A stretch of DNA of 64,000 bases from an uncultured Candidatus Binatia bacterium (lineage in GTDB: Bacteria > Desulfobacterota > Binatia > Bin18), in the NCBI GenBank assembly GCA_965243735.1, contig CBDEVZ010000008.1:1624302-1688301 (forward strand), given 5' to 3'. Of this stretch, positions 1 to 58,847 are shown one piece after another. Both the position numbers and the translations under genes were made by a program. Every line of letters starts with the position of its first letter. Positions within the stretch are counted from its first letter, which is position 1. The notes under the pieces were generated by a model. It made no database searches. It had not been told where the DNA came from and saw only the letters and a program-made list of their open reading frames with translations.

Positions 1-3000
1 GTGGAGCCTGACCGTCTACGGCCACCGCTCCACCCCCGGCGCACCGGATATCGACGAAGTGACTCCGGGGCCCGGCTCGCTCAGCGTGTCCTGGAAGGCG
101 CCGGACAACAGCGGTGTCTCCGCCGTCACCGGCTATGATGTCCGCTACATCAAGGCCAGCGAGGACGATACCAAGGACGACAGCTGGACGGTGGTGGCCA
201 CCGGCTGGACCTCCGGCGACGATCTGGAATACACCATCCCCAGCTTGGAGAGTGACGTTGCCTACGATGTCCAGGTGCGGGCGGTCAACGCCCAGGGCGA
301 CGGCGCCTGGTCGTCTACGGCCACCGAGAAACCCTCCAGCGACGCGCCCTACTTCTTGGAAGGCACCGCCACCACCCGAAGCGTCGAGGAGAATGCGTCT
401 GCCGGGACGAACGTCGGCGCCCCGGTCGCCGCTCGTGATCCCAGTATCCCCGCCGAGACCTTGACCTACACGCTTTCGGGCGCCGACGCCGGTTCGTTCG
501 ATATCGACAGCACTACCGGGCAACTGTCGGTCGCCACGGGAGCAGCGCTGGACCACGAAGCCACACCCAGCCTGACCGTCATCGTGGCGGCCACCGACCC
601 GGTGACGACCGACGATCCCACCGCCGACTCCGACTCCATCACCGTGACCATTACCGTCGTCGATGTGGATGAGCCGCCCACGCTGACGGGGGAAACCAGC
701 ATTGCGTATGCCGAGAACGGCTCGCTCCCGGTCGCCATCTACACCGCCACCGACCCGGAAGACGAGCCGATCACCTGGCTGCCGCTGACCGGGACGGACA
801 GCGGCGACTTTACCCTCAACAATGGCGTCCTGAGCTTCGCCACCGCTCCCGACTATGAGGCGCGCGGCGACAACGCCTATGCGGTGACCGTGCGTGCCTC
901 TGATGGCACTACGAGTTCCGCGACCCTGGATGTCACGGTCGCCGTCACCAACGTGGATGAAGTCCACACGCTGACGGAATTGTTCCGTATCGCGTCGTAT
1001 GCCGAGAACGGCACCGGGGCGGTGGCGGAATACAGCGTCAGTGACCCGGAGGGCGTGTCACCCACGTGGTCTCTGGCCGGAACCGACCGGGGCGACTTCA
1101 CCATTGCTGGCGGCGTCCTGCGCTTCGCAAACACCCCCGACTACGAGCGACCTGCCGACGCCGGTGGCAACAACGTCTATGCGGTGAGCGTGCAAGCCAC
1201 CGCCGGGGAGCACACCGTCGAGCAGGTTGTCACCATTCGTGTCACCAACGTGGATGAGCCGCCCACGCTGACGGGGCCGACCAGCGTGCCGCCGTATGAC
1301 GAGAACAGAACAACGCAGGTCGCCCGCTACACCGCCACCGACCCGGAGGGGGCGACCGTCCTGTGGTCGGTGGCCGGGGACGACGCTGAGGACTTCACCA
1401 TCAGCGGCGGCGTGCTGCACTTCGACCCCGCTCCCGACTACGAGGCGCGCGCCGACGCCGACGGTGACAATGACTATGAAGTGACCGTGGTCGCCTCCGA
1501 TGGCGGCCTCACCACGCGGCAGGCCCTCACCGTCACCGTCACCAACCTGAACGAAGCGGGCAGTCTGACCCTGTCATCGGAGTATCCGCAGGTCGAGACC
1601 CCCTTCACTGTGACCCTGACCGATCCCGACATCGTCTCTGCTAGCACCTGGGTCTGGGAGCGGTCTGCCAACCGGAGTGCGTGGACGGAGATTGATGGTG
1701 CAACCTCGGACCGCTACACGCCGGCGGACGAGGACATGAATCATTACCTGCGAGTCACGGTGGACTACACCGACGGGCACACGGCGTCCGGCAGCAAAAC
1801 GCTCCAGCACACGGCCCCCAACCGGGTCCGGGCGGAGCCGGGCGAGAACAACTTTCCGGTTTTCCCGGACACTGCCACGACCCGCAGCGTCCCGGAGAAC
1901 ACGCCAGCCGGGAGGAACATCGGCGACCCGGTAGTGGCCACCGACCTGGACGACGACCCGCTGACCTACTCCCTGGACGCTACGGGCGATAGCGTCTTCG
2001 CCATCGACAGCAGGTCCGGCCAGTTGCGGACCGAAGCGGCGTTGGACCATGAGGACACACCCAGCTACGCCGCTACCGTGACGGCCACCGACCCCTCCGG
2101 AGACTTCGATTCCATCGACGTGACCATCACCATTACCGACATAGACGAACCGCTCACGCTGATGGGGCCGAGCACTGTCCCATACGAAGAGAATAGCTCC
2201 GGGACCGTCGCTACCTTTAGCGCTGCCGACCCGGAAGAGGAACCCATCACGTGGACGCTGGCGGGAACTGACCGCACCGCCTTCACCCTCAGCGGCGGCG
2301 TCCTCACCTTCAACGATCCCCCCGACTACGAGGCGGACAACCGCTACAGCGTGACCGTGGAAGCCACCGCCGGCAGCCATACCGCGCGGCAGCCCGTCAC
2401 CGTCCGCATCACCAACGTGAACGAGGAGCCGGCAATCACCGGGCCGACCGCTATTGCCGATTATCTGGAGAACTCTACGGGACCCGTGGCCACCTACCGC
2501 GCCACCGACCCGGAACGCGATCCGATTCAATGGACGCTGGAGGGCACCGACTCGGACGCCTTCACCCTCAACGCCGGGGTGCTGCGCTTCCTCGCTCCGC
2601 CCGACCACGAAACCCAGGCGAGCTACTCGGTGACCGTAGTGGCCTCCGATGGGGAACTGACTGATGCACTGCCCGTGACGATTACCGTGACCAACGCGGA
2701 CGAAGCGGGCGATCTGACCCTGTCGTCGGTGCAGCCGCAGGTGGGCACCGAGCTGACTGCCATCCTGAGCGATCCCGACTGTAACCCTGACTGCGCTTCC
2801 GGTTCTAGCTGGGTCTGGGAACAGTCGCGTGACCGGCGGACATGGGAGGCCGTTAAGGGGACGCCCACCACCAAGTATACGCCGGAGACGGACGACCTGG
2901 GTACCTACCTGCGCGTTACGGCGACGTACACCGACGGGACCGGGTCGGCCAAGAGATCGCAGGTCATCTCGCCCCATGCGGTGCGGACGGAACCGCCCAC

Positions 3001-4642
3001 CAACGACCCTCCGGCCTTTCCTGCGTCCCCGCCCACTCGCACCGTTGGCGCCGATGCGAGCGCGGGCAGCCGCGTTGGGGCGCCGGTGACAGCCGCGGAC
3101 CCCGAGGACGACCCGCTTACCTACACGCTGAAGGATGAGCCGGGCGCGGCCTGTTTCGCTATCGATTGGGTCAGCGGCCAGATCGCGGTGGGCTCACAGG
3201 GACTGCTGCCCTGTGCCAGCACGGCCACGATCTCAGCCGGGCAGCGGACGATCAGCCCGCGAGTCGAGGTCCCCAATACCTACGAATTCACCGTGACCGC
3301 CACTGACCCGTCCCTGGACTCCGCCGTAATTCCCGTCTTCATCACCGTCGCGTCTTCTCCGTCGCCGCCCCCGCCAGGGCCGGGCGGTGGCGGTGGCAGC
3401 GGTGGAGGCGGTGGGGGGGGTGGCGGCGGAGGCGGCAGCCGTGAATCCACCTGCGCCGAGGACCTGCACGGCAACAGCGCGACTCAAGCCACCGGTATAG
3501 CCCTGGCCACCGAGACTGCCGGAGCCGTCTGTCCAGCTGCGGACGTGGATTATTTTACCGTGGCCGCTCCCGGCCGGGGCCTCCTGTTTGTCGATACCAC
3601 CAGTGGCGTGCCGACCCGCGGCACGCTCTGGCAGAACGGCGTGGTCTTAGCGTCCGGCTCCACGCGGGACAGTCGGCAGCCGGGGGACCGCCTCGGCGCC
3701 CGCGTGGAGGCCGGCCCAGTTGTCGTGGCGCTGCAAGGGCAGGGGGGGGCGACTGGGGCGTACACCCTCGTCATCACCTTCGCGCGGGGCTTTCTGGAGA
3801 ACCCGGGTCTCGACTCCTTCCAGAGCGGCGTTGGTGTGCTGTCGGGTTGGGTGTGTGAAGCGGACCTGGTGGAGATCGAGCTGAATGGGATGCCGCAGGA
3901 GGCGGCGTATGGCACGGATCGGCTGGACACCCAAGGCGTATGCGGGGACACGAACAACGGCTTTGGCCTCTTGTTCAACTGGAACCTGCTGGGGGATGGC
4001 GCGCATGAAGTGGTGGCCGTGGTCGATGGCGTCGAACTCAGGCGCGCCACCGTCACGGTAACGACGCTGGGGGAGGAGTTCGTGCGGGGGGTGAACGGGG
4101 AATGTACTGTCGCGGACTTTCCCAGTGTCGGCGAGAGTGTCCGGCTGGTGTGGCAGGCAGCCAGTCAGAGCTTCGTGCTGGCTGAGGGCGCCGTACCGAC
4201 CGGGGCGTCCCGCTCTGGGATAGCCGGGGTGGGGTATCTGGAGAACCCGAGCGCCAACTCGTTTCAGAGCGGCATCGGCGTCCTCTCGGGCTGGGTATGC
4301 GAGGCTGAGGAGGTGGTCATCGCGATTGGCGACCTGATCCCACAAGTGGCCGGCTACGGCACAGAGCGCCTGGACACCCAAGCAGTGTGCGGCGACACGG
4401 ATAATGGCTTCGGCTTGCTGTTCAACTGGAACCTGCTGGGGGACGGGGAGCACGAAGTGGTGGCCACCGTCGATGGCACAGAGTTAGGCCGGGCCACGGT
4501 GCGGGTGACGACCTTGGGCGAGGAGTTCGTGCGGGGGGCCGTGGGGGAATGTACGGTGGACGACTTCCCTGTGCCCGGCGAGACGGTCACGCTCACCTGG
4601 CAACACAACAGTCAGAACTTTGTCATTACCCAGGTCGAGTGA
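1..4642 (+). CDS. 5'-truncated giant secreted surface protein: FN3 + ~10 cadherin-like repeats + Gly-rich linker + PPC domain + tandem novel C-terminal domain (CTD-A 3788-4215, CTD-B 4234-4639)
   Basis: ORF 59..4642 stays open to base 1 in the same frame, so the gene starts before the window. FN3 signature (SVSWKAP...YDVQVRAVN). Cadherin-like repeats (ATDPEDEPITW...PDYE). DVDYFTV...AGPVVVALQG matches a PPC domain. The terminal tandem ~135-aa module is shared with six other genes in the window. Confidence 0.85.
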   Translation, partial: WSLTVYGHRSTPGAPDIDEVTPGPGSLSVSWKAPDNSGVSAVTGYDVRYIKASEDDTKDDSWTVVATGWTSGDDLEYTIPSLESDVAYDVQVRAVNAQGDGAWSSTATEKPSSDAPYFLEGTATTRSVEENASAGTNVGAPVAARDPSIPAETLTYTLSGADAGSFDIDSTTGQLSVATGAALDHEATPSLTVIVAATDPVTTDDPTADSDSITVTITVVDVDEPPTLTGETSIAYAENGSLPVAIYTATDPEDEPITWLPLTGTDSGDFTLNNGVLSFATAPDYEARGDNAYAVTVRASDGTTSSATLDVTVAVTNVDEVHTLTELFRIASYAENGTGAVAEYSVSDPEGVSPTWSLAGTDRGDFTIAGGVLRFANTPDYERPADAGGNNVYAVSVQATAGEHTVEQVVTIRVTNVDEPPTLTGPTSVPPYDENRTTQVARYTATDPEGATVLWSVAGDDAEDFTISGGVLHFDPAPDYEARADADGDNDYEVTVVASDGGLTTRQALTVTVTNLNEAGSLTLSSEYPQVETPFTVTLTDPDIVSASTWVWERSANRSAWTEIDGATSDRYTPADEDMNHYLRVTVDYTDGHTASGSKTLQHTAPNRVRAEPGENNFPVFPDTATTRSVPENTPAGRNIGDPVVATDLDDDPLTYSLDATGDSVFAIDSRSGQLRTEAALDHEDTPSYAATVTATDPSGDFDSIDVTITITDIDEPLTLMGPSTVPYEENSSGTVATFSAADPEEEPITWTLAGTDRTAFTLSGGVLTFNDPPDYEADNRYSVTVEATAGSHTARQPVTVRITNVNEEPAITGPTAIADYLENSTGPVATYRATDPERDPIQWTLEGTDSDAFTLNAGVLRFLAPPDHETQASYSVTVVASDGELTDALPVTITVTNADEAGDLTLSSVQPQVGTELTAILSDPDCNPDCASGSSWVWEQSRDRRTWEAVKGTPTTKYTPETDDLGTYLRVTATYTDGTGSAKRSQVISPHAVRTEPPTNDPPAFPASPPTRTVGADASAGSRVGAPVTAADPEDDPLTYTLKDEPGAACFAIDWVSGQIAVGSQGLLPCASTATISAGQRTISPRVEVPNTYEFTVTATDPSLDSAVIPVFITVASSPSPPPPGPGGGGGSGGGGGGGGGGGGSRESTCAEDLHGNSATQATGIALATETAGAVCPAADVDYFTVAAPGRGLLFVDTTSGVPTRGTLWQNGVVLASGSTRDSRQPGDRLGARVEAGPVVVALQGQGGATGAYTLVITFARGFLENPGLDSFQSGVGVLSGWVCEADLVEIELNGMPQEAAYGTDRLDTQGVCGDTNNGFGLLFNWNLLGDGAHEVVAVVDGVELRRATVTVTTLGEEFVRGVNGECTVADFPSVGESVRLVWQAASQSFVLAEGAVPTGASRSGIAGVGYLENPSANSFQSGIGVLSGWVCEAEEVVIAIGDLIPQVAGYGTERLDTQAVCGDTDNGFGLLFNWNLLGDGEHEVVATVDGTELGRATVRVTTLGEEFVRGAVGECTVDDFPVPGETVTLTWQHNSQNFVITQVE

Positions 4643-4644
4643 GC

Positions 4645-4770
4645 CAACCCCGGCGGCCCTGCTGGGGTTGGTGCTCCCCGCTCATTCCTTTTCCCCCCTT
4701 TGTCCGTTTTTTCCGTGCTTTCCTGCCCATTTGAGCAGCGCACTTTTCCGGCCAGCCGGGTATAGGCAGC
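4645..4770 (+). promoter_or_regulatory. Conserved post-stop module M1: GC hairpin (4645-4672), CT-rich tract (4681-4722), 18-bp palindrome CTGCCCATTTGAGCAGCG (4723-4740), TATAGG box (~4763)
   Basis: Same arrangement recurs after six other CTD genes at a fixed distance from the stop. CCAACCCC...GGGGTTGG inverted repeat. TGCCCA/TGGGCA half-sites. Confidence 0.45.
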
Positions 4771-10800: not shown

Positions 10801-11279
10801 AGCAGAGCTTCGTGCTGGCCGAGGGCAGCGCACCGACCGGGGCTTCCCGCTCCGGGATAGCCGGGGTGGGCTTGCTGGAAAACCCGAGTGCCACCTCGTT
10901 TCAGAGCGGCGTCGGGGTGCTGTCGGGCTGGGTGTGTGCGGCGGAGGCAGTCACGATTACGCTCGGCGACCTGGCTCCGCAGGTGGCCGGCTACGGCACC
11001 GAACGGCTGGACACGCTGGATGTCTGCGGGGACACGGCCAACGGCTTTGGGCTGTTGTTCAACTGGAACCTGCTGGGCGATGGCGAGCATGAGGTCATTG
11101 CCACGGTGGATGGGACCGAGCTGGCCCGCACGACGGTGCGGGTGACGACCTTGGGCGAGGAGTTCGTGCGGGGGGCCACAGGGGAGTGCATCGTGGCGGA
11201 CTTCCCGCATCCGGGCGAGACCGTCACGCTCACGTGGCAACAGACCAGCCAGAACTTTGTCCTCACCGACGTGGAGTGA
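4887..11279 (+). CDS. Giant secreted protein: signal peptide, spondin_N-like domain (SPDWFVGV), cadherin-like repeats, arylsulfotransferase-like beta-propeller (tentative), multiple Calx-beta and Ig-like domains, Gly-rich linker, PPC, tandem novel CTD (A 10425-10850, B 10868-11276)
   Basis: 2130-aa ORF with GTG/ATG start at 4887/4890. N-terminal hydrophobic signal (WWAAGLLVLLLVGWSASAHA). Calx-beta-like blocks (ASFGAASYSVNEGESVSV...). DVDYFTF PPC motif. The CTD tandem is the same as in the other giants. Confidence 0.85.
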   Translation: MMESNSQFWIWPRWWAAGLLVLLLVGWSASAHAQSAPYQVTFEGNWTTTATPDGVPAGAHFSPLIGAVHNDQVTFWQSGGTASTGIESMAEIGGTSALKSEITNAGSAASSTIERSGNIGVTAEVTVDITLSPTHPLVTLVTMIAPSPDWFVGVADLSLLDAQNKWLASHTINLFPYDAGTEDGTEFSLSNAATDPQGTITSIEGTGKFSNEPMATLTFTLQDAAPEITSATTFPVDEGTTTVTTLTAVDANDDPLTWTIPADAAGGADAAQFTLSSAGVLAFATAPDYEAPADADTDNRYEVTVQVSDGATPVTAALEVTVANVIELTAISGPATVSFDENGWGRVATFTASSEEDRAGIEWVLGGDDAAHFTIDSPPGALRFDIDPVAPRLFAQPPDFDAPVDDDTDNAYALTLLARAGSAISDTAFPVTVTVTDVDEDGTLSLSATRPALGVALTATLADADGVVDESTVWTWERSAGRNVWAAVDGADAAAYTPVAADTGEFLRVTATYTDEHGSGKTVREVAADVVRGPLLTSLTAETTDSQADSTQSLFPAFNAQTLHYGIGCNTTDTMTLTVSGPANARISVDGVQAASATAISVSVGEDDDVSITVTDTSGARTTYTVHCMADELFEFEMHRYPGATDVTEDLYMFTLQGVEYLVALDRNGVPRIGRSAAIRHWFAIRFTRVGADGAYRYAYAPKDGDGYWILDENLEVIDDTVRTVAPLTTINWHDFRLLEDGNYLLMAWEPATRDLSGLDLPFPAGQDFTAVSVLDSAAQIVTPDGEAVFNWNSWDQVALEDCVQHRFPVVLPAAPQGRQAGGGYAHINGMDVADGVFVGSLRGCSQVVGVDLDTEEVIWRMGRTNLSDEEWRERGLVPPLDLINDPEGEFCGQHTTQFLPNGNVFFYDNGVVCVIDPLTFEELGREGRDFSRAVEYALDLDNDEAVFVRDHSLHGERVHLAPATGSVDPLDNGDWLVSWGRPSEEYLPNNEAVTLVDPDTGQEKLAIRFTVVDPNAERLRHINASVVPAEALAPQPTPLTAEITDSPSPATFHTGAEGAPQVVVAFSRPVVDFAPTTPSLSVTGATVASVSAHVVAGAPANAYLVTLTPDGDGAITFGFVTDQPCADGGICTADGTPLSEVPTALTIPGPVTASFGAASYSVNEGESVSVVVELDRAHGRPGDVTIPLAVESGSTATATDYTLPLQVTFGPSETRQTVSLATHADTSLEEAETVEVTFGALPSGVNAGTTTVTSVTITDRTPAARFNLTLNPTTIVEGGTADVRASITNGVTFTTDQTLTLGFSGSATQETDYTIDSATLSLLAGQSSVATILRATDDADTEPAETIRVAVHHETTQVATQTATVPASDQPAVTPQIAVRAGRNPAQEAEGALFTVTRTGETTTNLTVAVEVTASGSMPLAGTPPTAVTFSVGQENVSLAVPTVDDTIIEGPSERSVVRAEVVADPNTPPLYLRGSPASAEVTVEDDDEAEFGVTVAPNPVAEGSTANAQVAITNGVTFTDDQTVSLTFSGVATRETDYTVGATTLTLTAGQSSVVATLSVTDDGDKEPAESVHIIAQHAGREVGRATLTIAASEDTKPPTLERAEVLRDGRTLRLTFSEPLDEAAPYRPAATAFAVTVAGAPRGVRTVTLTGETVVLGLARPVGPGQEVTVSYTAPESGSGHPALQDPAAHVVASFVDAAVDNQAQARSQPPGGSGGGGGGGGSGSGGSPDAHGNTAAQATVVSLGAPAPWRSATSGQLSPASDVDYFTFTVPQAGVLVAETTGATATVGTVWQDGVALGTAASGGAGPNFRLTVPVHAGPVVVAVRGQGEQTGAYRLVTRLVVGFLENPGPDSFQSGIGVVSGWVCGAARVEIALNGVLHEAAYGTERLDTEPVCGASATGFGVLFNWNLLGDGAHEVVAFVDGIELTRATVTVTTLGEEFVRGVSGECTVADFPSGGETATLAWQEAQQSFVLAEGSAPTGASRSGIAGVGLLENPSATSFQSGVGVLSGWVCAAEAVTITLGDLAPQVAGYGTERLDTLDVCGDTANGFGLLFNWNLLGDGEHEVIATVDGTELARTTVRVTTLGEEFVRGATGECIVADFPHPGETVTLTWQQTSQNFVLTDVE

Positions 11280-11285
11280 GCCCCG

Positions 11286-11508
11286 CCAGAGCTAGGGCGT
11301 TTCACGTTAGGCTGTAGTCATGCCGTTCCGCTCTCGTTCTGCTGGCCGCGATCCGATATCCCTGCTTCGACTTCGCTCCGCTACGCTCAGCACGAACGGG
11401 AGACCGTTAGTCCTGAGCCTGTCCTGAGCCGTGTAGGTCAGGTTAGCCGGAGGCGTAACCTGACATCCCGTACGTGTCGGATTACGCTCCGCTCATCCGA
11501 CCTACTAC
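11286..11508 (+). repeat. MITE-like palindromic repeat (halves A+B) inserted at the 3' end of the preceding gene
   Basis: Half A (11286-11400) matches the reverse complement of 44700-44800. Half B (11428-11508) is near-identical to 54456-54537 and to the reverse complement of 49715-49796. B contains two 9-bp-stem hairpins: GTCAGGTTA-N10-TAACCTGAC and GTCGGATTA-N8-TAATCCGAC. Confidence 0.6.
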
Positions 11509-11586
11509 TTCCCGCATCCGGGCGAGACCGTCACGCTCACCTGGCAGGAGTCCAGCCAGAACTTTGTCCTCACCGACGTGGAGTGA
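11509..11586 (+). repeat. Imperfect ~78-bp duplicate of the last ~25 codons + stop of the CTD gene (cf. 11202-11279)
   Basis: CTTCCCGCATCCGGGCGAGACCGTCACGCTCAC...GTGGAGTGA is repeated with 5 mismatches. The two copies encode WQQTSQNFVLTDVE* and WQESSQNFVLTDVE*. Confidence 0.6.
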
Positions 11587-11706
11587 GCCCCGCCGGGGGC
11601 AGTCACCACCTACTCGGGCCTCTTTTTTCCCATTTTTCGTTTTTTCTTGTCCTTTCTACCCATCTGGGCAGCGATATTTTCATACCGATGTGGTGTGGGC
11701 AGCAGA
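11587..11706 (+). promoter_or_regulatory. Post-stop module M2: hairpin GCCCCGCCGGGGGC (11587-11600), CT tract, palindrome CTACCCATCTGGGCAGCG (11656-11673), GTGTGGGCAG box (~11694)
   Basis: Member of the conserved module family described for M1. Confidence 0.4.
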
Positions 11707-11748: not shown

Positions 11749-12054
11749 ATGCATATTGAACACATGGGTTTGCCTGCCGCCTCCCCAGACAGGGGAAGTC
11801 GGGAGTGGGAGGCGGGACGACAGGAACGGGCCAGGTCGCTGATAAACGGGCGGTTCCTCGCCGCGCTGCCCGTCCTCGTCCTGATGACCCTGGTGGTCAA
11901 CGGGGCGACCGTGGCGGGCACGGTACGGACATTGGACGGAACCTATCATATCCGCTCGGTGGGTGACGGCTTATACGCCATCAGCGAGGTAGAGGAGCCT
12001 TCGCTCAACTGCGGGGTCGAGGAGCCCCATGCTGAGACGGATCACCAGCATTGA
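11749..12054 (+). CDS. Small (~101 aa) protein with hydrophobic segment and C-terminal ...LVVNG.TV.GTVR...IRSVG.GLY.ISEV.E.PLNCGVE.PH.ETDHQH; propeptide-like partner of the downstream metzincin
   Basis: ORF 11647..12054, trimmed to ATG 11749 because the listed 11647 start overlaps palindrome M2. Paralog of ORF 22959..23579. Its TGA stop overlaps the TTG start of the next gene (ATTGA). The NCGVEEP motif resembles a metzincin cysteine switch. Confidence 0.5.
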   Translation: MHIEHMGLPAASPDRGSREWEAGRQERARSLINGRFLAALPVLVLMTLVVNGATVAGTVRTLDGTYHIRSVGDGLYAISEVEEPSLNCGVEEPHAETDHQH

Positions 12055-19100: not shown

Positions 19101-19230
19101 CGCCGGTCTCGCACTCTTCCGGGGCGGGTGCGGCCTGTTCGGCCTTCTTTTTTCTCGTGGTCCTGTTTTTTTGGTCTTTGCTGCCCATTTAGGCAGCGCA
19201 TTTCTCCTCCCAATCGAGTACAGGCAGGGA
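19101..19230 (+). promoter_or_regulatory. Post-stop module M3: weak hairpin + T-tract (19141-19180), palindrome CTGCCCATTTAGGCAGCG (19181-19198), GAGTACAGGCAG box (~19216)
   Basis: Conserved module family. GCGTATGCGGACGGAGCCTGACC (~19290) also recurs after gene 1 (~4835). Confidence 0.4.
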
Positions 19231-19559: not shown

Positions 19560-22456
19560 ATGCAGGAAATTCATATGCGTAGAAGCAGATGCCACCACAT
19601 TCTGTGTGGGGTGGTGGTGGCCATATGCGTGGCAGTTGCTGGCAGTCCTGATGCAGCCCATGGCCAATCCATCCCATCCAGTTCGTTTGTCACCACTTGG
19701 CGCACGACAGCGAACAACCAGTCCATCACCATTCCGGCGAGCGGCACGTATACCATCGACTGGGGCGACGGGACCGTGGAAGAGGACGTGCGGGGCAGGC
19801 AGTCCCACAGGTATGATTCCGCTGGTACCTACACGGTGCGCATATCCGACGGTATCACCAGATTCCACCTCAACGGTCAGGCTGGCGCGAACAGGCTGGT
19901 ATCCATCGAGCAGTGGGGGACTGCCCAGTGGACATCGATGCATGAGGCGTTCCAGGGCGCATCCAACATGGAATACAACGCCACTGATGCGCCTGACCTC
20001 TCGCAGGTCACGGACGCCGCCCTCATGTTCTACGGTGCCTCGTCCTTCAACGGTGACATATCCGACTGGGACGTATCGTCTTTGACCAACATGAAATCCA
20101 TGTTCCACAAAGCCGATGCCTTCAACCAGCCCCTGTCCTCCTGGGATGTCTCGTCGGTGGCCAGCATGGCGCTGATGTTCTCCAGCGCCCGCTCCTTCAA
20201 CCAACCCCTGGACTCCTGGGACGTGTCGTCGGTGACCGAAATGAAGCCATGTTCCAGAACACCGATGCTTTCAACCAATCCCTGGACTCCTGGGACGTGT
20301 CGTCGGTGACCAACATGCGCTCCATGTTCTGGAATGCCCGCTCCTTCAACCAACCCCTGTCCTCCTGGGACGTGTCGTCTGTGACCAACATGTTGTGGAT
20401 GTTCCGCGACACCGGCGCCTTCAACCAGCCCCTCTCCTCCTGGGACGTGTCATCTGTGACCAACATGAACGAAATGTTCCGCGACACCGGCGCCTTCAAT
20501 CAGCCCCTGTCCTCCTGGGACGTGTCGTCTATAACCAACATGCTCGGCATGTTCCGCGGCGCCACCGCCTTCAACGGCGACATCTCCGACTGGGACGTGT
20601 CGTCTGTGACCAGCATGGTGTGGATGTTTTACGGTGCCACGTCCTTCAACCAGCCCCTGGACTCCTGGAACGTGTCGTCTGTGACCAACATGCTCGGCAT
20701 GTTCTTCAACGCCACATCCTTCAACCAGCCCCTGAACTCCTGGAACGTGTCGTCTGTGACCAGCATGACTGACATGTTCTATGGCGCTGTCGCCTTCAAC
20801 CAGCCCCTCTCCTCCTGGGACGTGTCGTCTGCGACCAACATGAGCTACATGTTCGATGGCGCCTCCGCCTTTGAGCAAAACCTCGGAAGCTGGCACATCG
20901 TGCTGGATGACACGTCAATCGACTACGGCGATACACCGGGAACCGTCGGAGGCATATCCGCGCAGAACGCCTTCCTTGACCAGCAGAACCCCGTCTACGG
21001 GATAAGCCCCGGCGGCGACTCCGGCTCCTTCGAGCTGAACGGCACCGACCTCGTGATGAAGGAGGTTCCCACCAAGGACTCGTACACGGTGACCCTCACG
21101 GCGACCGCCACGGGAGACTTTGGCACCGGCAACTCCCGGATCTTCACCATAGCGGTGTCGGGCCTGCCCACCTCTCCGCCGCCACCCCCGCCGCCACCCC
21201 CGAGCAACACCGGGGGTGGGGGAAGCAGTGGCAGCAGCGGGGGCGGGGGCAGCCGTTCCCCGGATCAGCACGGAGACACGCCGGGGCAGGCGACGGCAGT
21301 CACCCCGCACGCCCGCGCGCCGTGGGCGGCGTCCACACCGGGCCACCTCAACAGTCCGAGCGATGTAGATTATTTCACGTTGGAGGTGCCGTATGACGGG
21401 GTGTTGGTGGTCGAGACCGCCGGCTCGACCGACACCGTGGGCACGGTGTGGCAGGCCGGGGTCGAACTGGCCACCGCGACCGGCGGAGGTGCGGGCCAGA
21501 ACTTCCACCTCAGCGTCCCCGTGCAGGCCGGAGCGGTGATGATTGCCGTGGCGAGTGCTGGGCGGACGGGGAGCTATCACTTGGAGACACGCCTGGTGGT
21601 CGGCTTTCTGGAGAACCCCGGCCCCGCCTCCTTCCAGAGCGGCATTGGCGTGGTGTCGGGTTGGGTGTGCACGGCCGAGGTGGTGGAGATCGCGTTGAAT
21701 GGGGCCGTGCAGGAAGCGGGATATGGCACGGCACGGAGCGATACGGCCGGCGTGTGTGGGGACACGGACAATGGGTTTGGGTTGCTGTTCAACTGGAACC
21801 TGCTGGGGGACGGCGAACATGAGGTCGTGGCGTATGTAGACGGCGTTGAACTGGCGCGCACGACCGTGACGGTGACGACGCTGGGCGCAGAATTTCTGCG
21901 GGACGTGACCGGCGAATGCACCGTGGCCGACTTTCCGAGTGCGGGCGAGGGTGTGCGGCTTGTGTGGCAGCAAGCGCAGCAGAACTTTGTCCTGGCCGAA
22001 GGCGCTGTCCCGCGCGGCCCGACCCAGGCCGGGACGGCCGGGGTCGGGTATCTGGAGAACCCGAGCCCCAACTCGTTTCAGAGTGGGATTGGGGTGGTGT
22101 CGGGCTGGGTGTGCGCGGCCGGCTTGGTCGAGATCGAGATTGGGCATCTCACGCCGCAAGTCGCCGCGTACGGGACCGAACGACGCGATACCCAAGCCAT
22201 GTGCGGGGACAGCGGCAACGGATTTGGGTTGCTCTTCAACTGGAATTTGCTCGGTGATGGGGAACATGACGTCATTGCCTACGTAAATAACATCGAGTTA
22301 GGCCGGGTCACGGTGCGGGTGACGACGCTGGGCGAAGAGTTCGTGCGGGGCGCTGTGGGCGAATGCACCGTGGCGGACTTCCCCAGTCCGGGGGAGCGTG
22401 TGACGCTCACCTGGCAACAGAGCAGCCAGAATTTTGTGATCAGCGGAGTGGAGTAG
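19560..22456 (+). pseudogene. Secreted DUF285-type (F..A.AFNQPL.SWDVSSVTNM..MF) repeat protein + poly-Pro/Gly linker + PPC + tandem novel CTD (A 21602-22020, B 22047-22453); split into ORFs 19560..20309 and 20249..22456 by a 1-nt frameshift at ~20244-20248
   Basis: Signal peptide on ORF 19560. At least 12 near-identical 78-bp repeat units. Only 5 nt (aagcc) separate the two Met codons where every other unit has 6. Downstream frame carries DVDYFTL PPC and the CTD tandem. Confidence 0.7.
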
Positions 22457-22629
22457 CGCCTTGTATGATAAGTGATCGCTGTGTCAGCCCGCTCGCGTCA
22501 TATCGGACGCGAGCCGGCATCCAGAAGCCGGGAGGCTGGGGGCGGAATGACGGGCGGCCACACAGAATCATAATTTGTTCTATTGGCAGACCCACTCCGG
22601 CCCTTTAGTCACCTCTCCCTGACGTGTGA

Positions 22630-22769
22630 CGCAAAAAGAAACCCACCCCGGCCATCTCCATCCCCTCCTCGGAGGGGTGCCGCGTGAGCGGCGGGGTGGG
22701 TTCTCTCCGGCCAGCGGCTTCTGCACGGTTGGGAAGAGTAGATGCCGGGTAAGGTGCATCACACGTCCC
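22630..22769 (+). repeat. ~140-nt structured repeat, copy 1 (second copy 46593-46731); possible small RNA or REP-like element
   Basis: GCAAAAAGAAACCCACCCCGGCC...CCCCTCC.GAGGAGGGGTGCCGCG.TAGCGGCGGGGTGGGTTCTCT...GGGTAA.GTGCATCACACGTCC is conserved between copies. Long stem CCCACCCCG/CGGGGTGGG enclosing two inner hairpins. Confidence 0.5.
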
Positions 22770-22847
22770 GAGAGGGGGATTGCTCTGTCCCCTGTCCTGA
22801 GTCCAGTCGAAGGGTGGGTTTCTTATGCGCGCCTGCACGGCCCTCTT

Positions 22848-22927
22848 TTTCCGTCCTTTTTTGCATTTTTCTTATGATTGCTGCCCAACTGGGCAGCGAC
22901 ATTTGCGTATCGACGGGGTATGGATTG
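22848..22927 (+). promoter_or_regulatory. Post-stop module M4 (displaced by repeat insertions): CT tract, palindrome CTGCCCAACTGGGCAGCG (22881-22898), GGGTATGGA box (~22915)
   Basis: Conserved module family. Confidence 0.4.
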
Positions 22928-22958: not shown

Positions 22959-23579
22959 ATGGTACGAGTCTGGTGGTTCGTTTCATGTGTTGCTACCCTG
23001 ATCCGGCCTGTCCGGCGCATGTGTCTGGCCGTCACGGTGGCGGTGCTGACTACGTTGGTCCCGCCCCCGTCCGAGGCCCAGTCCCCGGTTCTCTTTACCT
23101 CGGTCAATGAAACGCCGCCGCCCGGCCCGCTCGGCACCGAGACATTGCGCAGCCGGCTGGTGACCATGGACCTCGGGCAAGTCCAGCACGCCCGGGCTGC
23201 CGCCGCCACGGCGTCCGGCCAGCCTCCGCAGACCAGAGACACGTCCGGGCGTACAGACAAATCCAGCGCGGCGCCCGCCCCAGGTACGCTCCTGACCCTT
23301 AATCTGTTTGACGACGTGGTGGTCACGGGCGTGGTGGAGCGAACCGCGCCGACGTTTTCGGGGGGCTATTCCGTGGCGGGCCACCTGGTCGAAGAGCCGC
23401 TCGGCACCCTGACCCTGGTGGTCAACGGGGAGACGGTGGTGGGCACGGTACGGATGTTGGGGGAGACCTATCAGATCCGCTCGGTGGGAGGCGGATTGTA
23501 TACCATCAGCGAGGTGAAGGAGCACCCGCTCAACTGTGGGGTTGAGGGGCCCCATTCTGAGACGGACCATCAGCATTGA
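22959..23579 (+). CDS. Small secreted propeptide-like protein (paralog of 11749..12054) with C-terminal ...PLNCGVEGPHSETDHQH; translationally coupled to the downstream metzincin
   Basis: Signal peptide (MCLAVTVAVLTTLVPPPSEA). ~55-aa C-terminal block conserved with the first small ORF. Its stop TGA 23577-79 overlaps the TTG start 23576 of the next gene. Confidence 0.55.
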   Translation: MVRVWWFVSCVATLIRPVRRMCLAVTVAVLTTLVPPPSEAQSPVLFTSVNETPPPGPLGTETLRSRLVTMDLGQVQHARAAAATASGQPPQTRDTSGRTDKSSAAPAPGTLLTLNLFDDVVVTGVVERTAPTFSGGYSVAGHLVEEPLGTLTLVVNGETVVGTVRMLGETYQIRSVGGGLYTISEVKEHPLNCGVEGPHSETDHQH

Positions 23580-31786: not shown

Positions 31787-31897
31787 GCCCCACCGGGGTG
31801 AATCCGCGCGGCTTGTTCGCATTTTCTTTCATTTTCTCGGTCCTCTCTGCCCATCTGGGCAGCGTATTTTTCCTGACGATCATGTACAGGCAGTGAA
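31787..31897 (+). promoter_or_regulatory. Post-stop module M5: hairpin, CT tract (31811-31846), palindrome CTGCCCATCTGGGCAGCG (31847-31864), TGTACAGGCAG box (~31884)
   Basis: Conserved module family. Confidence 0.45.
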
Positions 31898-38169: not shown

Positions 38170-38300
38170 GCCCCACCCCGCGCTTCTGTCGGGGCGGAGC
38201 TTGCCTGCCCGGTTCTCGTTTGTTCCTCCTTTGTCCGTTTTTTTGCCTTTCCTGCCCATTTGGTCAGCGATAGACGCCGTGGCGCTCTTCTATGCTCGTG
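38170..38300 (+). promoter_or_regulatory. Post-stop module M6: CT tract (38210-38251), palindrome CTGCCCATTTGGTCAGCG (38252-38269), TTCTATGCT box (~38286)
   Basis: Conserved module family. Lies immediately upstream of the next giant gene, whose likely true start is ATG 38340. Confidence 0.4.
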
Positions 38301-41519: not shown

Positions 41520-41640
41520 GCCGCCCCGTCGTCCCACCGGGGCAGTGGCTGACCGGTCAGTCCTCTTTTCCCGTCTTTTTCGCCGCTTCTGCTTATATGG
41601 GTAGTGCATTCCTCGTGCCAGTCGTGTATAGGAAGTGGCC
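41520..41640 (+). promoter_or_regulatory. Post-stop module M7 (degenerate): hairpins, CT tract, CTGCTTATATGGGTAGTG (41589-41606), TGTATAGGAAG box (~41624)
   Basis: Same layout as M1-M6 but the palindrome half-sites have mutated. Confidence 0.35.
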
Positions 41641-41689: not shown

Positions 41690-41815
41690 GGGCTGCACCC
41701 ATCGCCTGGGAGCCGCCTACGGCACCGCGCGGGCCGATACCGCTGAGACGGCAGAGGGCGAGGAGTTTCTGCGGGGTGTCACGGGCGAGACGGTTGTTCC
41801 TGACTTTCAGTATGC
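41690..41815 (+). pseudogene. Relic fragment of the novel CTD (...AAYGTARADTAETAEGEEFLRGVTGETVVPDF...) with no intact ORF
   Basis: One-frame translation of 41604..42020 contains a degenerate YGTERLDT...TTLGEEFLRGV.GECVV.DF block. Overlaps the 5' end of the ankyrin gene. Confidence 0.5.
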
Positions 41816-44654: not shown

Positions 44655-44800
44655 GATGCCGTGTAGCCCTTCGACTTCAGGCGCGCTGCGCCTTACGCTC
44701 AGGACCAACGGCTTCCCGTTCGTGCTGAGCGTAGCGGAGCGAAGTCGAAGCACGGATGCCGGATCGCGCTCGGCAGGGCTACAGCCTAACGTGAAACGCT
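44655..44800 (-). repeat. MITE-like repeat (half A type), reverse orientation
   Basis: Reverse complement of 44700-44800 aligns with 11286-11400, sharing GCGTTTCACGTTAGGCTGTAG and TGCTTCGACTTCGCTCCGCTACGCTCAGCACGAACGGGA. Long internal hairpin CTTCGACTTC...GAAGTCGAAG. Confidence 0.5.
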
Positions 44801-44828
44801 CTAAATGACCCCAGCGCGGTGTGCCGCG

Positions 44829-46567: not shown

Positions 46568-46592
46568 GCGTCTCTCCTCCTTTACGTATGAT

Positions 46593-46731
46593 GCAAAAAG
46601 AAACCCACCCCGGCCTTCGGCCACCCCTCCGAGGAGGGGTGCCGCGCTAGCGGCGGGGTGGGTTCTCTGCGGCCCAGCGGCGTCTGCATAGCTGGTAGGA
46701 GCAGACTCTGGGTAACGTGCATCACACGTCC
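46593..46731 (+). repeat. ~140-nt structured repeat, copy 2
   Basis: Near-identical to 22630-22769; same nested-hairpin architecture. Confidence 0.5.
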
Positions 46732-49693: not shown

Positions 49694-49796
49694 CGGTTCA
49701 CGATAGGCTGTCGTAGGTCGGATTAGCGGAGCGTAATCCGACACGTACGGGATGTCGGCTTACGCCTACGGCTCACCCGACCTACACGGCTACACA
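49694..49796 (-). repeat. MITE-like repeat (half B type with terminal inverted-repeat end), reverse orientation
   Basis: Reverse complement matches 54456-54558, including the terminal GCCCTATCGTGAA(G/C)CG. Confidence 0.5.
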
Positions 49797-52163: not shown

Positions 52164-53300
52164 ATGTCCACAGAACTCTCTGGCAAAGACCTCCATCTTT
52201 CGAGTCTGGCGATCATGGGGTTTCGGGGGATCGAAGACCTTTCGATCCCCCGTTTAGGCCGCGTGACGCTCTTCGTGGGGAAGAACGGAGTTGGCAAGAC
52301 GACTCTGCTTGAGGCCGTCCGTCTCTATGCTGCGCGCGGGCGTGACTCTCTTTTCGCGGATATATTGCGGAATCGTGAAGAGATGGCTGACACTGTCGAT
52401 GAGGACGGCGACAAAAAGCTCGTACTCAATTGGGAGGCTCTCTTCCATGGTCGGCACGCCTCATCAGATGCTTGTATCTCAATAGGTCCGATTATTGAGA
52501 CAGAACAGCTCTGCATTCGGACCATTCCATTAAGTGAAAAGATCGCTAAGGCATTAGGAAAGCTCACCAGCGGGCATTCCTCAGGCGAGGAGGTGAAGGT
52601 GCTCAGGGTCGAGTTTCACGGTGCGACTCAAGAATATCCGATGTCTGAATCTCCGACCGAGCAAGCATTATTACGTGAGCTGACGAAATTTTTTGATGAT
52701 GAACCCCAGCTGCTATCTGAAATCCTATGCGAGTCTCTGGGACCGAGTTTGCTGACTGATATGGACATGGCGCGGTTCTGGGATGAGATAGCGCTCACAG
52801 ATGATGAACCCCGGGTCGTGCAGGCTCTGAATCTGATCTTTGGCGATATAGTGGACCGTGTCGCGGTAGTTGGAGATGACAGGAAAAATAGTACTCCTCA
52901 TGGCCGCCGGGCGGTCGTGAAGATCAAAGGGCAAGATCGTCCGGTCCCCCTGAAAAGTCTCGGCGATGGAGCTGTGCGCCTGTTTGGTGTCGCTTTGGCT
53001 CTTGCTAACAGCCGAAATGGTCTCCTGGTTATCGACGAGGCGGAAAACGGACTCCACTATGCGGCGCAGCGCAATTTCTGGAAGATGGTTCTGAGAGCGG
53101 CGCACGAGAACAACGCGCAGGTTTTCGCAACGACACATAGCTGGGACTGTGTGGCAGGCTTTGCTCAAGCGGCAACGGATGTAGATGAGGTGGAAGGCGT
53201 TCTTGTTCGCCTTGAGAGGGACGGCAGCCGCATCCGTGCAGTAGAATACTCCGAGGACGATCTCAAAATCGCAGCCGAGCAAGGCATTGAGGTCAGATAG
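52164..53300 (+). CDS. AAA/ABC-like ATPase (AAA_21/OLD-like; RloA/AbiLi-like) of a two-gene putative defence module
   Basis: Walker A (GKNGVGKTT) at the N-terminus. C-terminal LLVIDEAENGLH (Walker B/D-loop) and FATTHS (H-loop). Lower GC than flanks. Confidence 0.7.
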   Translation: MSTELSGKDLHLSSLAIMGFRGIEDLSIPRLGRVTLFVGKNGVGKTTLLEAVRLYAARGRDSLFADILRNREEMADTVDEDGDKKLVLNWEALFHGRHASSDACISIGPIIETEQLCIRTIPLSEKIAKALGKLTSGHSSGEEVKVLRVEFHGATQEYPMSESPTEQALLRELTKFFDDEPQLLSEILCESLGPSLLTDMDMARFWDEIALTDDEPRVVQALNLIFGDIVDRVAVVGDDRKNSTPHGRRAVVKIKGQDRPVPLKSLGDGAVRLFGVALALANSRNGLLVIDEAENGLHYAAQRNFWKMVLRAAHENNAQVFATTHSWDCVAGFAQAATDVDEVEGVLVRLERDGSRIRAVEYSEDDLKIAAEQGIEVR

Positions 53301-53303
53301 TCT

Positions 53304-53921
53304 GTGGCTCAGCCTACTTCGTCACCCTCTCGTATCCTTTTAGTCGAAGGACAGAATGACAAGCACGTCGTTCTGCATCTCCGTGCCAGGCGTCCATTGA
53401 CATTGGACTTTGACGTTCGGGACACGGGAGGTATTGACCAACTGCTCCCGTCTATCGGTCCTGAAATCAAGGTTTCAGGGCGACAGGTCGTCGGTATTCT
53501 CGTGGATGCAGACGACAATATGACAGCGCGTTGGGACGCCGTCACAGATCGACTCTCGAAGGCCGGTATCTCGCCACCGCCGTCTCCCGATTCAGCCGGG
53601 ACGATCATAGACGGAACACCTCGCATTGGTATCTGGCTAATGCCGAATAATGAAGCGTCCGGCGAGCTTGAGGATTTTGTCGTGCGAATGATCCCTGGCG
53701 GGGATCAGGTTTGGCCGTTATCCCGGCGCTACATAGAAGAGATTCCAGAAACGGAGAGAAAGTTTTCAGAGAAGAAAAAGCTGAGGGCGCAGCTCTACGC
53801 CTGGCTGGCGGCTAGGGAGGACCCCAGGCAGATGGGGTTAGCCATTCGCGCGGGCGATTTGGAAGTCGATAGCGAACTCAGCCAGAAATTTATTGCCTGG
53901 CTTACGAAACTGTTCGGATAA
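53304..53921 (+). CDS. TOPRIM-like DUF4435/RloB-family protein, partner of the upstream ATPase
   Basis: LLVEGQND (conserved Glu) and ILVDADDN (DxD) TOPRIM motifs. Starts 4 nt after the ATPase stop. Confidence 0.55.
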   Translation: MAQPTSSPSRILLVEGQNDKHVVLHLRARRPLTLDFDVRDTGGIDQLLPSIGPEIKVSGRQVVGILVDADDNMTARWDAVTDRLSKAGISPPPSPDSAGTIIDGTPRIGIWLMPNNEASGELEDFVVRMIPGGDQVWPLSRRYIEEIPETERKFSEKKKLRAQLYAWLAAREDPRQMGLAIRAGDLEVDSELSQKFIAWLTKLFG

Positions 53922-54443: not shown

Positions 54444-54455
54444 TATCTTCTCCTA

Positions 54456-54558
54456 GCCGTGTAGGTCAGGTTAGCCGGAGGCGTAACCTGACATCCCGTA
54501 CGTGTCGGATTACGCTCCGCTAATCCGACCTACTACGCCCTATCGTGAAGCGCACTAG
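54456..54558 (+). repeat. MITE-like repeat (half B + terminal inverted repeat)
   Basis: 54456-54537 matches 11428-11508 with 1 mismatch. Terminal GCCCTATCGTGAAGCGC is the inverted counterpart of GCGTTTCACGTTAGGC at 11288. Confidence 0.55.
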
Positions 54559-57570: not shown

Positions 57571-57764
57571 TCTCCCCCGTCTCACTCTCAAGCGTATGGC
57601 TCGATAGGTCGGGCCTGCGGTTGAATACCACAGTGGCGTGAGACGGAGGAGTAGCTACCCCCGTCGCCGCGAATAGACCGCACAATCTCAGCCATACGCT
57701 GTGAGTGGGACACGGCCCGGCAACTCTCACCCGTCGCGGCCGTGTCCTGCCACAGGAGGCCGCT

Positions 57765-58847
57765 ATGAAGGTGGTTGCGTTCGTGCTCGTGTTCCTTTGT
57801 CCGTCCTTGTCGTTTTGCTCCTCCGCTCATGCCTGGGTCCAGCTTGGCAACTGGGTGGTTCCCGCGAAGGAACTGACCGTGGTCATCAGCCGGTTTTGCC
57901 TGGACTGGCCGACGGGCTGGCAGCTCTCCACCGGCGACCCATGTCTTCGGTATACGGACGATGAGTGGAGGTCGGCCATCAGCAGCGCGGGCCACGAATG
58001 GAATGACGTCGGGAGTAGTTTCACCTTCCATTTCAGAATGGCGCGCGGCGAGGATCATCCCTGTCAACGCTCGGGCGAGGTGTTCGTGATTTTAGCGTTG
58101 CCTCACCAAGCGTGTCCGGGGGATTCGCCGATGGGGAGCGCGGCTGGGAAGGCCGTGTTTACGGGGTCCGCAAGTCCCTCCCCGCGCATTTATATCAACG
58201 CGCACTACCTCAACGCGTACTACACGATTGGTACGTCCTGGATGAGTCTGCGACGGGTCATCCTGCATGAACTCGGGCATGTGCTGGGGCTCGGGCATCC
58301 CCCCGCTCATGTCCAAGCCGTCATGGTGCCGGGTTCCGAATGGCTCCGCTTACAGCCCGACGACATAGCCGGCATTCTGGCGCTCTATCCGCCCGAGCCC
58401 GCCCATACGATTGTGGTGATAGAAAATCCGCTCTTCGAGTCGGCCCAGAGCGGGATCAGTGTGATTTCTGGGTGGGTGTGTGACGCGGAATCCCTCCGCC
58501 TCTTCATCACGCCTGCGGGGAATTGGTACGAGCATCTGGTTGTCACCGGCATTCCCTACGGCGGAGATCGGGCCGACACCGAGAGTCACTGCGGGGACCG
58601 CGACAACGGCTTCGGGCTGCTCTTCAACTGGAACACGCTCGGGGACGGCGAGTACTATGTGATGGTGGAAACCGATGACGGCCGCTTCAGTTGGGCTGCC
58701 GTGACCGTCACCACACTCGGGGAGGAATTCCGACGCGGACTGGAGGGGACATGGGAGGTAGACGGCTTTCCCGACCCGAACAGCTCCGTCACGATTGAGT
58801 GGTCCGAGGCGCTACAAAACTTCGTGATTGTGGAGCATAATCCTTAG
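57765..58847 (+). CDS. Secreted matrixin-like (M10) zinc metalloprotease with a single C-terminal copy of the novel CTD (58419-58844)
   Basis: RBS AGGAGG then ATG 57765. Signal peptide MKVVAFVLVFLCPSLSFCSSAHA. HELGHVLGLGHP followed by Met-turn AVMVP. C-terminus ...SGISVISGWVC...CGDRDNGFGLLFNWNTLGDGE...VTTLGEEFRRG...ALQNFVIVE. Confidence 0.8.
   Translation: MKVVAFVLVFLCPSLSFCSSAHAWVQLGNWVVPAKELTVVISRFCLDWPTGWQLSTGDPCLRYTDDEWRSAISSAGHEWNDVGSSFTFHFRMARGEDHPCQRSGEVFVILALPHQACPGDSPMGSAAGKAVFTGSASPSPRIYINAHYLNAYYTIGTSWMSLRRVILHELGHVLGLGHPPAHVQAVMVPGSEWLRLQPDDIAGILALYPPEPAHTIVVIENPLFESAQSGISVISGWVCDAESLRLFITPAGNWYEHLVVTGIPYGGDRADTESHCGDRDNGFGLLFNWNTLGDGEYYVMVETDDGRFSWAAVTVTTLGEEFRRGLEGTWEVDGFPDPNSSVTIEWSEALQNFVIVEHNP

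Follow-up and report, generated by a model that had tools for sequence, protein, structure and literature searches.

In an uncultured Candidatus Binatia bacterium, most closely related to bacteria of sponge metagenomes, an array of genes for giant secreted proteins carries a repeated non-coding module, built around a 16-base-pair (bp) palindrome, that is probably the operator-promoter of a family of LuxR-type regulators. We found this module in a 64,000-nucleotide stretch of DNA, hereafter the window (contig CBDEVZ010000008.1, positions 1,624,302 to 1,688,301, of assembly GCA_965243735.1). Seven copies lie in the window, the palindrome is their best-conserved part, and in related genomes the copies go with the start of the gene that follows. 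Relatives also place copies directly before the gene of a regulator with a GerE/LuxR-type helix-turn-helix (HTH), and the recognition helix of this regulator and the palindrome change in step across four types.

A head-to-tail array of CTD genes

The window has a G+C content of 64%. Its first 42 kb form a head-to-tail, plus-strand array of large secreted-protein genes whose products contain fibronectin-III (FN3), SWM/cadherin-like repeat, Calx-beta, PKD/DUF285 and LRR domains. An ankyrin-repeat gene closes the array, and the remaining 42-64 kb hold housekeeping genes and mobile DNA. Seven array genes terminate in two tandem copies of a 149-amino-acid (aa) C-terminal domain (CTD). An eighth CTD gene, the matrixin-CTD gene at 57705-58847, has a single copy (58398-58844). 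The CTD had no match in Pfam, NCBIfam or PDB sequence searches. The family is greatly expanded in Candidatus Binatia genomes, mostly sponge-metagenome assemblies; the genome collection gave 293 confirmed stretches, the majority from Candidatus Binatia. The closest relative is CBDBEO010000001.1 (loci L001-L003). The CTD contains Cys and has the consensus ENPxxxSFQSGIGVxSGWVC…TTLGEEFVRG…QNFV; the pair of gene 1 occupies 3746-4639 in an exact tandem arrangement, with equivalents at the ends of the six other genes. The domain might act in sorting, in anchoring or as a secretion signal.

Seven copies of one module

Searching the window for the palindrome CTGCCCANNTGGGCAG with at most two mismatches returned exactly six matches, at 4723, 11656, 19181, 22881, 31847 and 38252, against 0.52 expected, and none of 100 shuffles reached six. 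A seventh palindrome, at 41589 (CTGCTTATATGGGTAG), is degenerate; it was picked up with a whole-module profile (nhmmer E=5e-11). All seven copies match the coordinates of the original prediction, which was made from the sequence alone and had already called the seventh degenerate. The whole-module profile found nothing further in the window, including 42-64 kb and the region of the matrixin-CTD gene, in agreement with the claim that this gene lacks the module. The operator consensus is the 16-bp palindrome CTGCCCAnnTGGGCAG, with a 7-2-7 build; beside the seven in the window, the module profile found six more in L001-L003, and three were found later in locus L127. A metagenome-wide exact scan for TTNCTGCCCANNTGGGCAGCG returned 48 loci, none with T-tract or TA-box context, so these look like chance or coding matches.

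The elements follow one order in all seven modules, as had been claimed: a 45-nucleotide (nt) pyrimidine-rich stretch of T-runs, the palindrome, a spacer and a TAyRnn box. Measured from the palindrome, the centres of the T-runs fall at about -32, -21.5, -12.5 and -2, a phasing of about 10 bp, or one run per helical turn. The spacer from palindrome to TAyRnn box is 22 nt, and 23 nt in module 6. The copies, all on the plus strand, are as follows.

Module 1, 4678-4766, plus strand: T-tract 4678-4722; palindrome 4723-4738 (CTGCCCATTTGAGCAG); 22-nt spacer; TATAGG 4761-4766; 5' of gene 2 (ATG 4890).
Module 2, 11611-11699, plus strand: T-tract 11611-11655; palindrome 11656-11671 (CTACCCATCTGGGCAG); TGTGGG 11694-11699; 5' of a small open reading frame (ORF) and gene 3.
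Module 3, 19136-19224, plus strand: T-tract 19136-19180; palindrome 19181-19196 (CTGCCCATTTAGGCAG); TACAGG 19219-19224; 5' of the PKD/DUF285-CTD gene(s).
Module 4, 22836-22924, plus strand: T-tract 22836-22880; palindrome 22881-22896 (CTGCCCAACTGGGCAG); TATGGA 22919-22924; ortholog L001:3508.
Downstream of module 4, ATG 22959, 35 nt on, plus strand: a 206-aa ORF overlapping the start of giant gene 5.
Module 5, 31802-31890, plus strand: T-tract 31802-31846; palindrome 31847-31862 (CTGCCCATCTGGGCAG); TACAGG 31885-31890; 5' of the LRR and FN3-CTD genes; ortholog L002:5842.
Module 6, 38207-38296, plus strand: T-tract 38207-38251; palindrome 38252-38267 (CTGCCCATTTGGTCAG); 23-nt spacer; TATGCT 38291-38296; 5' of gene 8 (likely ATG about 38340).
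Module 7, degenerate, 41544-41632, plus strand: palindrome 41589-41604 (CTGCTTATATGGGTAG); TATAGG 41627-41632; 5' of the ankyrin-repeat gene.

The original prediction placed the palindrome 60-85 nt after each CTD stop. This is true of genes 1, 3, 5, 7 and 8 (80, 80, 60, 82 and 69 nt), and the exception it named for gene 4 is close to the 424 nt that we measured. It is not true of gene 2, whose stop lies at 11277-11279 with module 2 located 377 nt downstream. Gene 2 fits the range only if the distance is taken from an 88-bp duplicate of its 3' end, and the stop of this relic was probably mistaken for the stop of the gene.

The palindrome is conserved as sequence

Pairwise identity between module copies peaked at 81% in the palindrome, dropped to 46-54% across the T-tract, spacer and box, and fell to about 30% further downstream. 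Four-fold degenerate codon sites of the adjacent CTD had a pairwise identity of 60%. Since the palindrome exceeds these sites, we conclude that selection maintains it and that recent duplication alone does not explain its identity. An alternative is that the module is a functionless 3' flank, carried along by CTD-gene duplication or homogenised by gene conversion out of the CTD. That CTD 3' relics are joined to modules, and that identity falls with distance from the CTD, would fit such an origin. However, the sequence between CTD and palindrome is only 46% identical, far below the palindrome, and the palindrome and its TA-box spacing are kept before regulator genes of other genomes that have no intact CTD gene upstream. 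We therefore regard a functionless flank as highly improbable.

The conserved feature is the sequence rather than base pairing in RNA. The consensus fold of the module copies contained the palindrome only, with a covariation term of +0.14. Among the palindrome base pairs there were no compensatory changes, four wobble changes and five pair-breaking changes, and the changes were one-sided, from which it follows that sequence and not pairing is conserved. Rfam gave no matches at gathering thresholds across the whole window. With neither an Rfam match nor covariation, we rejected a structured cis-regulatory RNA or small RNA.

The GC-rich hairpin that precedes the T-tract had been taken for a terminator. 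Its copy in module 1 is the following.

GC-rich hairpin (GCCAACCCCGG...CUGGGGUUGG), 4643-4672, plus strand: directly 3' of the gene 1 stop; a possible 3'-end or terminator element.

The 106-nt stretch 4640-4745, which includes this hairpin, had a minimum free energy of -32.9 kcal/mol (z=-2.45). A hairpin of the form GCCCC...GGGGC recurs after the stops with loops of 3-13 nt, and beats shuffles significantly in module 1 only. The terminator scan found no canonical U-tract directly after the module 1 stem. Elsewhere it flagged the palindrome in modules 3 and 5 and hairpins followed by T at 19122, 38192 and 41547, and terminator-like sites were not more frequent than in shuffles (7 vs 4.5 and 7 vs 8.6). 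From the sequence, the hairpin and the first T-run may form a weak terminator of the preceding gene.

These scans bear on a second alternative, in which the module belongs to the CTD gene as its 3' end: folded into an RNA hairpin, the palindrome would terminate the upstream transcript or stabilise it, and the T-runs would be the U-tracts. A module does follow every CTD gene of the array, and the scan flags the palindrome together with the next T-run in two modules. However, the other five palindromes do not pass the scan, the gap from stem to T-run is 4-5 nt, the T-run is missing in modules 4, 6 and 7, and the stem has collected pair-breaking changes. The palindrome thus does not qualify as a Rho-independent terminator, and modules also occur where no gene ends.

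The module marks the start of the next transcription unit

In a head-to-tail array, a position after a CTD gene and a position before the next gene are inseparable, and we therefore used relatives to decide between the two. The module at L002:5543 is inverted, and 116 nt beyond it lies the ATG of a minus-strand gene for a 535-aa CTD protein, which has a signal peptide and a CTD 69% identical to that of the window (E=1e-62). Upstream of this copy on the minus strand there is no CTD gene. This gene runs towards the ortholog of window gene 1, 3' end to 3' end; neither of the two convergent CTD stops at L002 3450/3840, nor either of those at L127 20618/21008, is followed by a module. Within the window, no module lies between the LRR and FN3-CTD genes, which are 44 nt apart (36032/36076), and every module has a same-strand ORF with a signal peptide about 30-170 nt past the predicted start site.

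We also asked how general the association with CTD ends is. A strict search for any 7-2-7 palindrome with a TA box within 260 nt after 72 other Binatia CTD stops found only L001 (2/390 in the control), so the box is no general companion of CTD 3' ends. The module profile found none in 75 other Binatia CTD loci, its matches being confined to the cluster and its syntenic relatives; this restriction ruled out a dispersed repeat of the repetitive extragenic palindrome (REP) or miniature inverted-repeat transposable element (MITE) type.

Taken together, the inverted copy, the module-free convergent stops and the downstream starts indicate that the module marks the start of a transcription unit, and that the head-to-tail packing of these units alone explains why, in the window, modules come after CTD genes. 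A copy without a preceding CTD gene, and CTD ends without a copy, are both at odds with a 3'-end element, as are the palindromes of other sequence types described below (B to D), which lack a following T-run. We consider it very unlikely that the module serves the upstream transcript.

Palindromes and a LuxR-type regulator change in step

Palindromes of the window type (type A) at L003:1650 and L127:9837 belong to modules that directly precede a 380-aa ORF at the head of the syntenic cluster in two close relatives.

Regulator gene, L003:1769-2911 and L127:10001-11143: 380-aa protein with a GerE/LuxR HTH.

The C-terminus of this protein is a typical LuxR/GerE HTH (LGLTPAESRVAAALAEGASVRDIAQATGRQANSVRFLLKQIYRKQGL). 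Its own match to the GerE Pfam family is weak, and many of its homologs carry PF00196. Pfam and NCBIfam identified the HTH only, with no autoinducer-binding domain by sequence. An AlphaFold model contains two alpha/beta sensor-like domains and the HTH, and Foldseek matched it to bacteriophytochrome PAS-GAF modules, VqmA, LasR, RhlR, TraR, SdiA, CviR, the VqsR ligand-binding domain and EL222; on this model, the regulator may carry two PAS/GAF-like sensor domains. At L127 the order is box, regulator, CTD relic with repeats, box, 207-aa ORF and giant gene. The giant gene is the ortholog of window gene 1, and its 3' part and window 1-3374 share 80% nucleotide identity. Because of this synteny, the window genome's own regulator should lie about 5 kb 5' of the window start.

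Homologs of the regulator (58-66% identity) adjoin CTD genes in other Binatia genomes, and the palindromes before and after their genes have the same 7-2-7 build and a different sequence. Grouped by recognition helix, the pairs are as follows.

Type A: helix QANSVRFLLKQ, box CTGCCCAnnTGGGCAG; L003, L127.
Type B: helix SASSVRWHLKQ, box CCTCCCATTTGGGAGG; L009.
Type C: helix TERSVRWYLHQ, box TCTATCATnTGATAGG; L032, L014.
Type D: helix Q(E/V)SSIHWHL(K/R), boxes like CCCCTAAT..ATTAGGGG; L058, L128, L129.

Recognition helix and box therefore change in step, with four helix types and four box types. OY761159.2 contains types B, C and D, and a type-A regulator with its boxes occurs in another assembly, possibly of the same species. 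In OY761159.2, C-type boxes lie about 55 nt past CTD stops (L014:3517 and L054:3505), which is the arrangement of the window with a different box.

The pairing predicts that regulators with the same helix have the same box, and this held. Helix-A regulators from other genomes, about 69% identical overall, carry A-type boxes: P0007 (L130, GCA_965243855.1) and P0011 (L131, JGI metagenome) each have three before the start codon, the proximal one followed by TATATA 23 nt later. In L130 a further A-type module, complete and joined to a CTD relic, lies past the stop of the regulator. We conclude from these comparisons that the palindrome is probably the regulator's own site, with the same-helix, same-box result as its strongest support. 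The orientation in relatives, the link to the regulator and the co-variation of helix and box support the earlier proposal of a co-regulated cluster, in which the modules give the downstream genes a common promoter/operator and a single dimeric regulator binds them all.

Several regulator promoters carry more than one box, on the same helix face. In L130 (7852-7929) and L131 (7851-7929) the boxes lie 21 and 41-42 bp apart from start to start, and in L003 (1598-1665) the main box is preceded, at 52 bp, by a degenerate one. Such multiple boxes suggest cooperative autoregulation. The regulator family is also locally amplified: L128 6001-9822 (ERZ25072384 ctg341634) holds three tandem paralogs in a housekeeping neighbourhood, at least two of them with their own D-type box and TATAGG at 22 nt.

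Promoter geometry and a proposed mechanism

Of 28 sites from all four box types, 21 have TA[ACT][AG] at a distance of 21-23 nt past the palindrome; every other offset is represented by three sites at most. Taking the TA box as the -10 element would put the palindrome at about -50 to -35, with its centre near -42.5. The palindrome was originally thought to lie over the -35 region; by this reckoning it abuts that region from upstream instead. A sigma-70 consensus scan found no promoter at any module, and by eye the module consensus does not fit sigma-54 (-24/-12) or extracytoplasmic-function (ECF) sigma factor spacing. A poor -10-like box without a -35 consensus fits an activator-dependent promoter; by the same token, the contact with polymerase is an assumption.

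We propose the following model. Each module would be the promoter region of the next transcription unit, with CTGCCCAnnTGGGCAG as the operator for a dimer of a LuxR-family (GerE-type HTH) regulator and the TAyRnn box as a -10-like element with no recognisable -35 hexamer. The regulator would act as an activator, rather than a repressor, of class-II type, with the kind of RNA polymerase contact that LuxR makes at the lux box. The phased T-runs would fall at about -52 to -85 and probably form curved, UP-element-like DNA; class-II promoters often have A/T-rich DNA at this position, for the alpha subunit of the polymerase. The first T-run may double as a U-tract and so help to form a weak terminator of the gene before it. 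One signal, sensed by the regulator, would then be answered by all units of the array and by the regulator's own gene.

The palindrome could instead be a real promoter operator bound by another transcription factor or a nucleoid-associated protein, with the LuxR-type gene as a mere member of the regulon. Boxes 5' of the regulator gene are equally expected for a plain target gene, and the window itself has no regulator gene, both of which would suit such an arrangement. It does not account for a box type that tracks the recognition helix of the adjacent regulator through four types, or for the same-helix, same-box relationship in distant genomes with different neighbourhoods, and a 16-bp dyad near -42.5 is typical LuxR-family geometry. 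We consider recognition by another protein unlikely.

Several observations weigh against assigning the module to this regulator family. The TAyRnn box lacks the final T that is usual in sigma-70 -10 hexamers, and the consensus scan was empty. The window, which begins inside gene 1, contains no copy of the regulator, and the structural model of the regulator is only moderate (predicted local distance difference test score, pLDDT, 74.5; predicted template modelling score, pTM, 0.46). The distinction between an upstream and a downstream role comes from a handful of loci in relatives, and many of the A-type copies are mutually paralogous or orthologous and so are not independent observations. With these points included, we conclude that the module is probably the operator-promoter of this LuxR-type regulator family, a reading drawn from sequence comparison.

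CTD relics as an evolutionary footprint

The original prediction also held that CTD 3' end, hairpin and promoter travel together as one cassette. CTD 3' relics are indeed attached to modules: in the window at 11507-11586, in L003 (about 1480-1560) and L127 before the regulator promoter, and in L130 after the regulator. The window relic is listed here.

Relic of the gene 2 3' end, 11507-11594, plus strand: last ~80 nt and stop (11584-11586), 88 bp at 95.5%; tblastn 92% over 25 aa, E=1.6e-11.

Between the gene 2 stop and module 2 there is a 220-bp insertion of dispersed repeats, followed by this 88-bp relic duplicate. The relics at modules indicate that a module and the CTD end before it were copied as one; recombination inside CTDs is the probable route. 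Modules without CTDs and CTD stops without modules make this an evolutionary footprint rather than a functional coupling, so the cassette idea survives as history and fails as an obligatory linkage.

Short dispersed repeats of MITE/REP type are inserted between the CTD stops and modules 2 (11288-11506) and 4 (22460-22800). The first has copies at 54451-54528 and, on the minus strand, at 49718-49791 and 44697-44803; the second has a copy at 46577-46731, and related repeats occur in L002, L003 and L127. The insert at 11288-11506 is flanked by an 88-bp direct duplication of the gene 2 3' end, far above the normal length of a target-site duplication. Between module 7 and the ankyrin-repeat gene (about 41710-41805), a reading frame AAYGTARADT…GEEFLRGVTGETVVPDF matches the CTD at 8/10 and 13/17 positions; as a supposed internally deleted CTD relic, this region was not significant by tblastn.

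An imperfect palindrome at each gene end of a head-to-tail array recalls integron attC, and the locus carries signs of rearrangement in its relics, its insertions and a gene content that differs between relatives. The palindrome might thus be a site-specific recombination site, integron-attC-like or Xer/dif-like, at cassette boundaries. Unlike attC, however, it points the same way as the next gene and keeps a fixed 22-nt distance from a -10-like box, it also occurs before the regulator gene, and it varies together with an HTH regulator. It measures 16 bp against the 57-141 bp of an attC structure, and the window ORFs scanned include no integrase or recombinase, with only the IS1595 transposase 17 kb away. 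On size, orientation and the missing recombinase we rejected an integron attC or cassette site, and a recombination site of any kind is, of the alternatives, the one we give the least credence.

Other features of the window

Small ORFs lie between the module and giant genes 3 and 5, one of 206 aa at 22959-23579 and a shorter one at 11749-12054, with relatives in L127 (12440-13063) and L001 (after 3570). Their conserved C-terminal ~100 aa read …LVVNGxTVxGTVRxLxxTYxIRSVGxGLYxISEVxExxLNCGVExPHxETDHQH, with no match in Pfam or NCBIfam. The overlap of the small ORF with the start of the giant gene suggests translational coupling.

The PKD/DUF285-CTD gene 3' of module 3 is apparently split into overlapping ORFs in different frames (19560-20309 and 20249-22456), for which a frameshift, a pseudogene and an assembly error are all possible, and it contains a 75-nt tandem repeat array at 20215-20946. 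Outside the array, an ATPase (AAA_15/AAA_21) and a DUF3226 protein at 52164-53921 both match the PADLOC candidate defence system PDC-M38 (A, E=1e-84; B, E=2.5e-39), and the ATPase additionally matches AbiLi. The IS1595-family transposase gene (59269-60204) lies just 3' of the matrixin-CTD gene. A search of the window for tRNA and tmRNA genes found none.

Relation to known systems and significance

For the lux box, an inverted repeat of 20 bp, the centre lies at -42.5 (PMC3376562). Like the lux, las-rhl and tra boxes, the module has a dyad of 16-20 bp that would be centred near -42.5, abutting or overlapping the -35 region, without a good -35 hexamer (PMC3376562), the position in our case being conditional on the TA box as the -10 element. 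As in a LuxR-family box promoter, the dyad operator is conserved as sequence; the cognate GerE/LuxR-HTH regulator is found in relatives only. The regulator resembles LuxR, LasR, RhlR and TraR in its C-terminal GerE-type HTH, in N-terminal domains whose predicted fold is of ligand-binding type, and in boxes before its own gene. Unlike LuxR-type systems, it appears to have two PAS/GAF-like domains instead of one, it has no autoinducer-binding Pfam domain, its box has another sequence, and its targets would be giant secreted CTD proteins. The outer CT...AG of the A-type box presumably resembles the CT-N12-AG signature of las-rhl boxes. The domain libraries found no LuxI-type synthase among the window ORFs scanned, and with neither a synthase nor an autoinducer-binding domain by sequence the system does not fall under the canonical LuxI/LuxR acyl-homoserine-lactone definition. 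By its predicted structure, the regulator is at most a 'LuxR solo'-like receptor.

VqmA, the 3,5-dimethylpyrazin-2-ol (DPO) receptor of Vibrio and a vibriophage, likewise joins a PAS-type sensor to a LuxR-type HTH and has its palindrome 5' of the target. It is the best PDB sequence match of the regulator (7dwm, weak, E=0.14) and among the top fold matches. VqmA differs in having one PAS domain, about 220-240 aa and a single main target. In class II CRP/FNR promoters, a dimer site at about -41.5 replaces the -35 element and A/T-rich upstream DNA serves the alpha subunit. The proposed geometry of the module would be similar, whereas regulator family and site sequence are unrelated. Our literature search found no description of this palindrome, regulator subfamily or regulon. 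Judged by sequence, the module and its regulator are most likely a lineage-specific operator-regulator pair for a giant secreted-protein array, and thus a familiar kind of control element.

Sponge symbionts encode many 'eukaryote-like' or adhesin-like proteins, with cadherin, fibronectin-III, LRR, ankyrin, Calx-beta and DUF285 domains. To our knowledge, next to nothing is known about the control of these proteins, and the organisms are uncultured. A more speculative idea, which we think unlikely, is that the very large CTD surface and secreted repertoire of Binatia is split into orthogonal regulons, each with its own LuxR-type paralog of two sensor domains and a private box, and that recombination between CTDs, with the CTD-hairpin-promoter unit as a portable junction, could move passenger genes between them. 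If true, the bacteria would have an interchangeable set of host-interaction proteins, addressable by ligands and reshuffled by recombination.

Mechanistically, the proposed system is conventional. What the finding offers is a set of handles: a defined operator, a candidate ligand-sensing regulator, and a regulon predicted to comprise eight or more transcription units of the 42-kb array. Metatranscriptomes could be read for coordinated switching of these units, and the receptor offers a starting point in the search for its ligand, whether host- or community-derived. The four helix/box pairs also form a small natural specificity series for DNA recognition by LuxR-type HTH domains.

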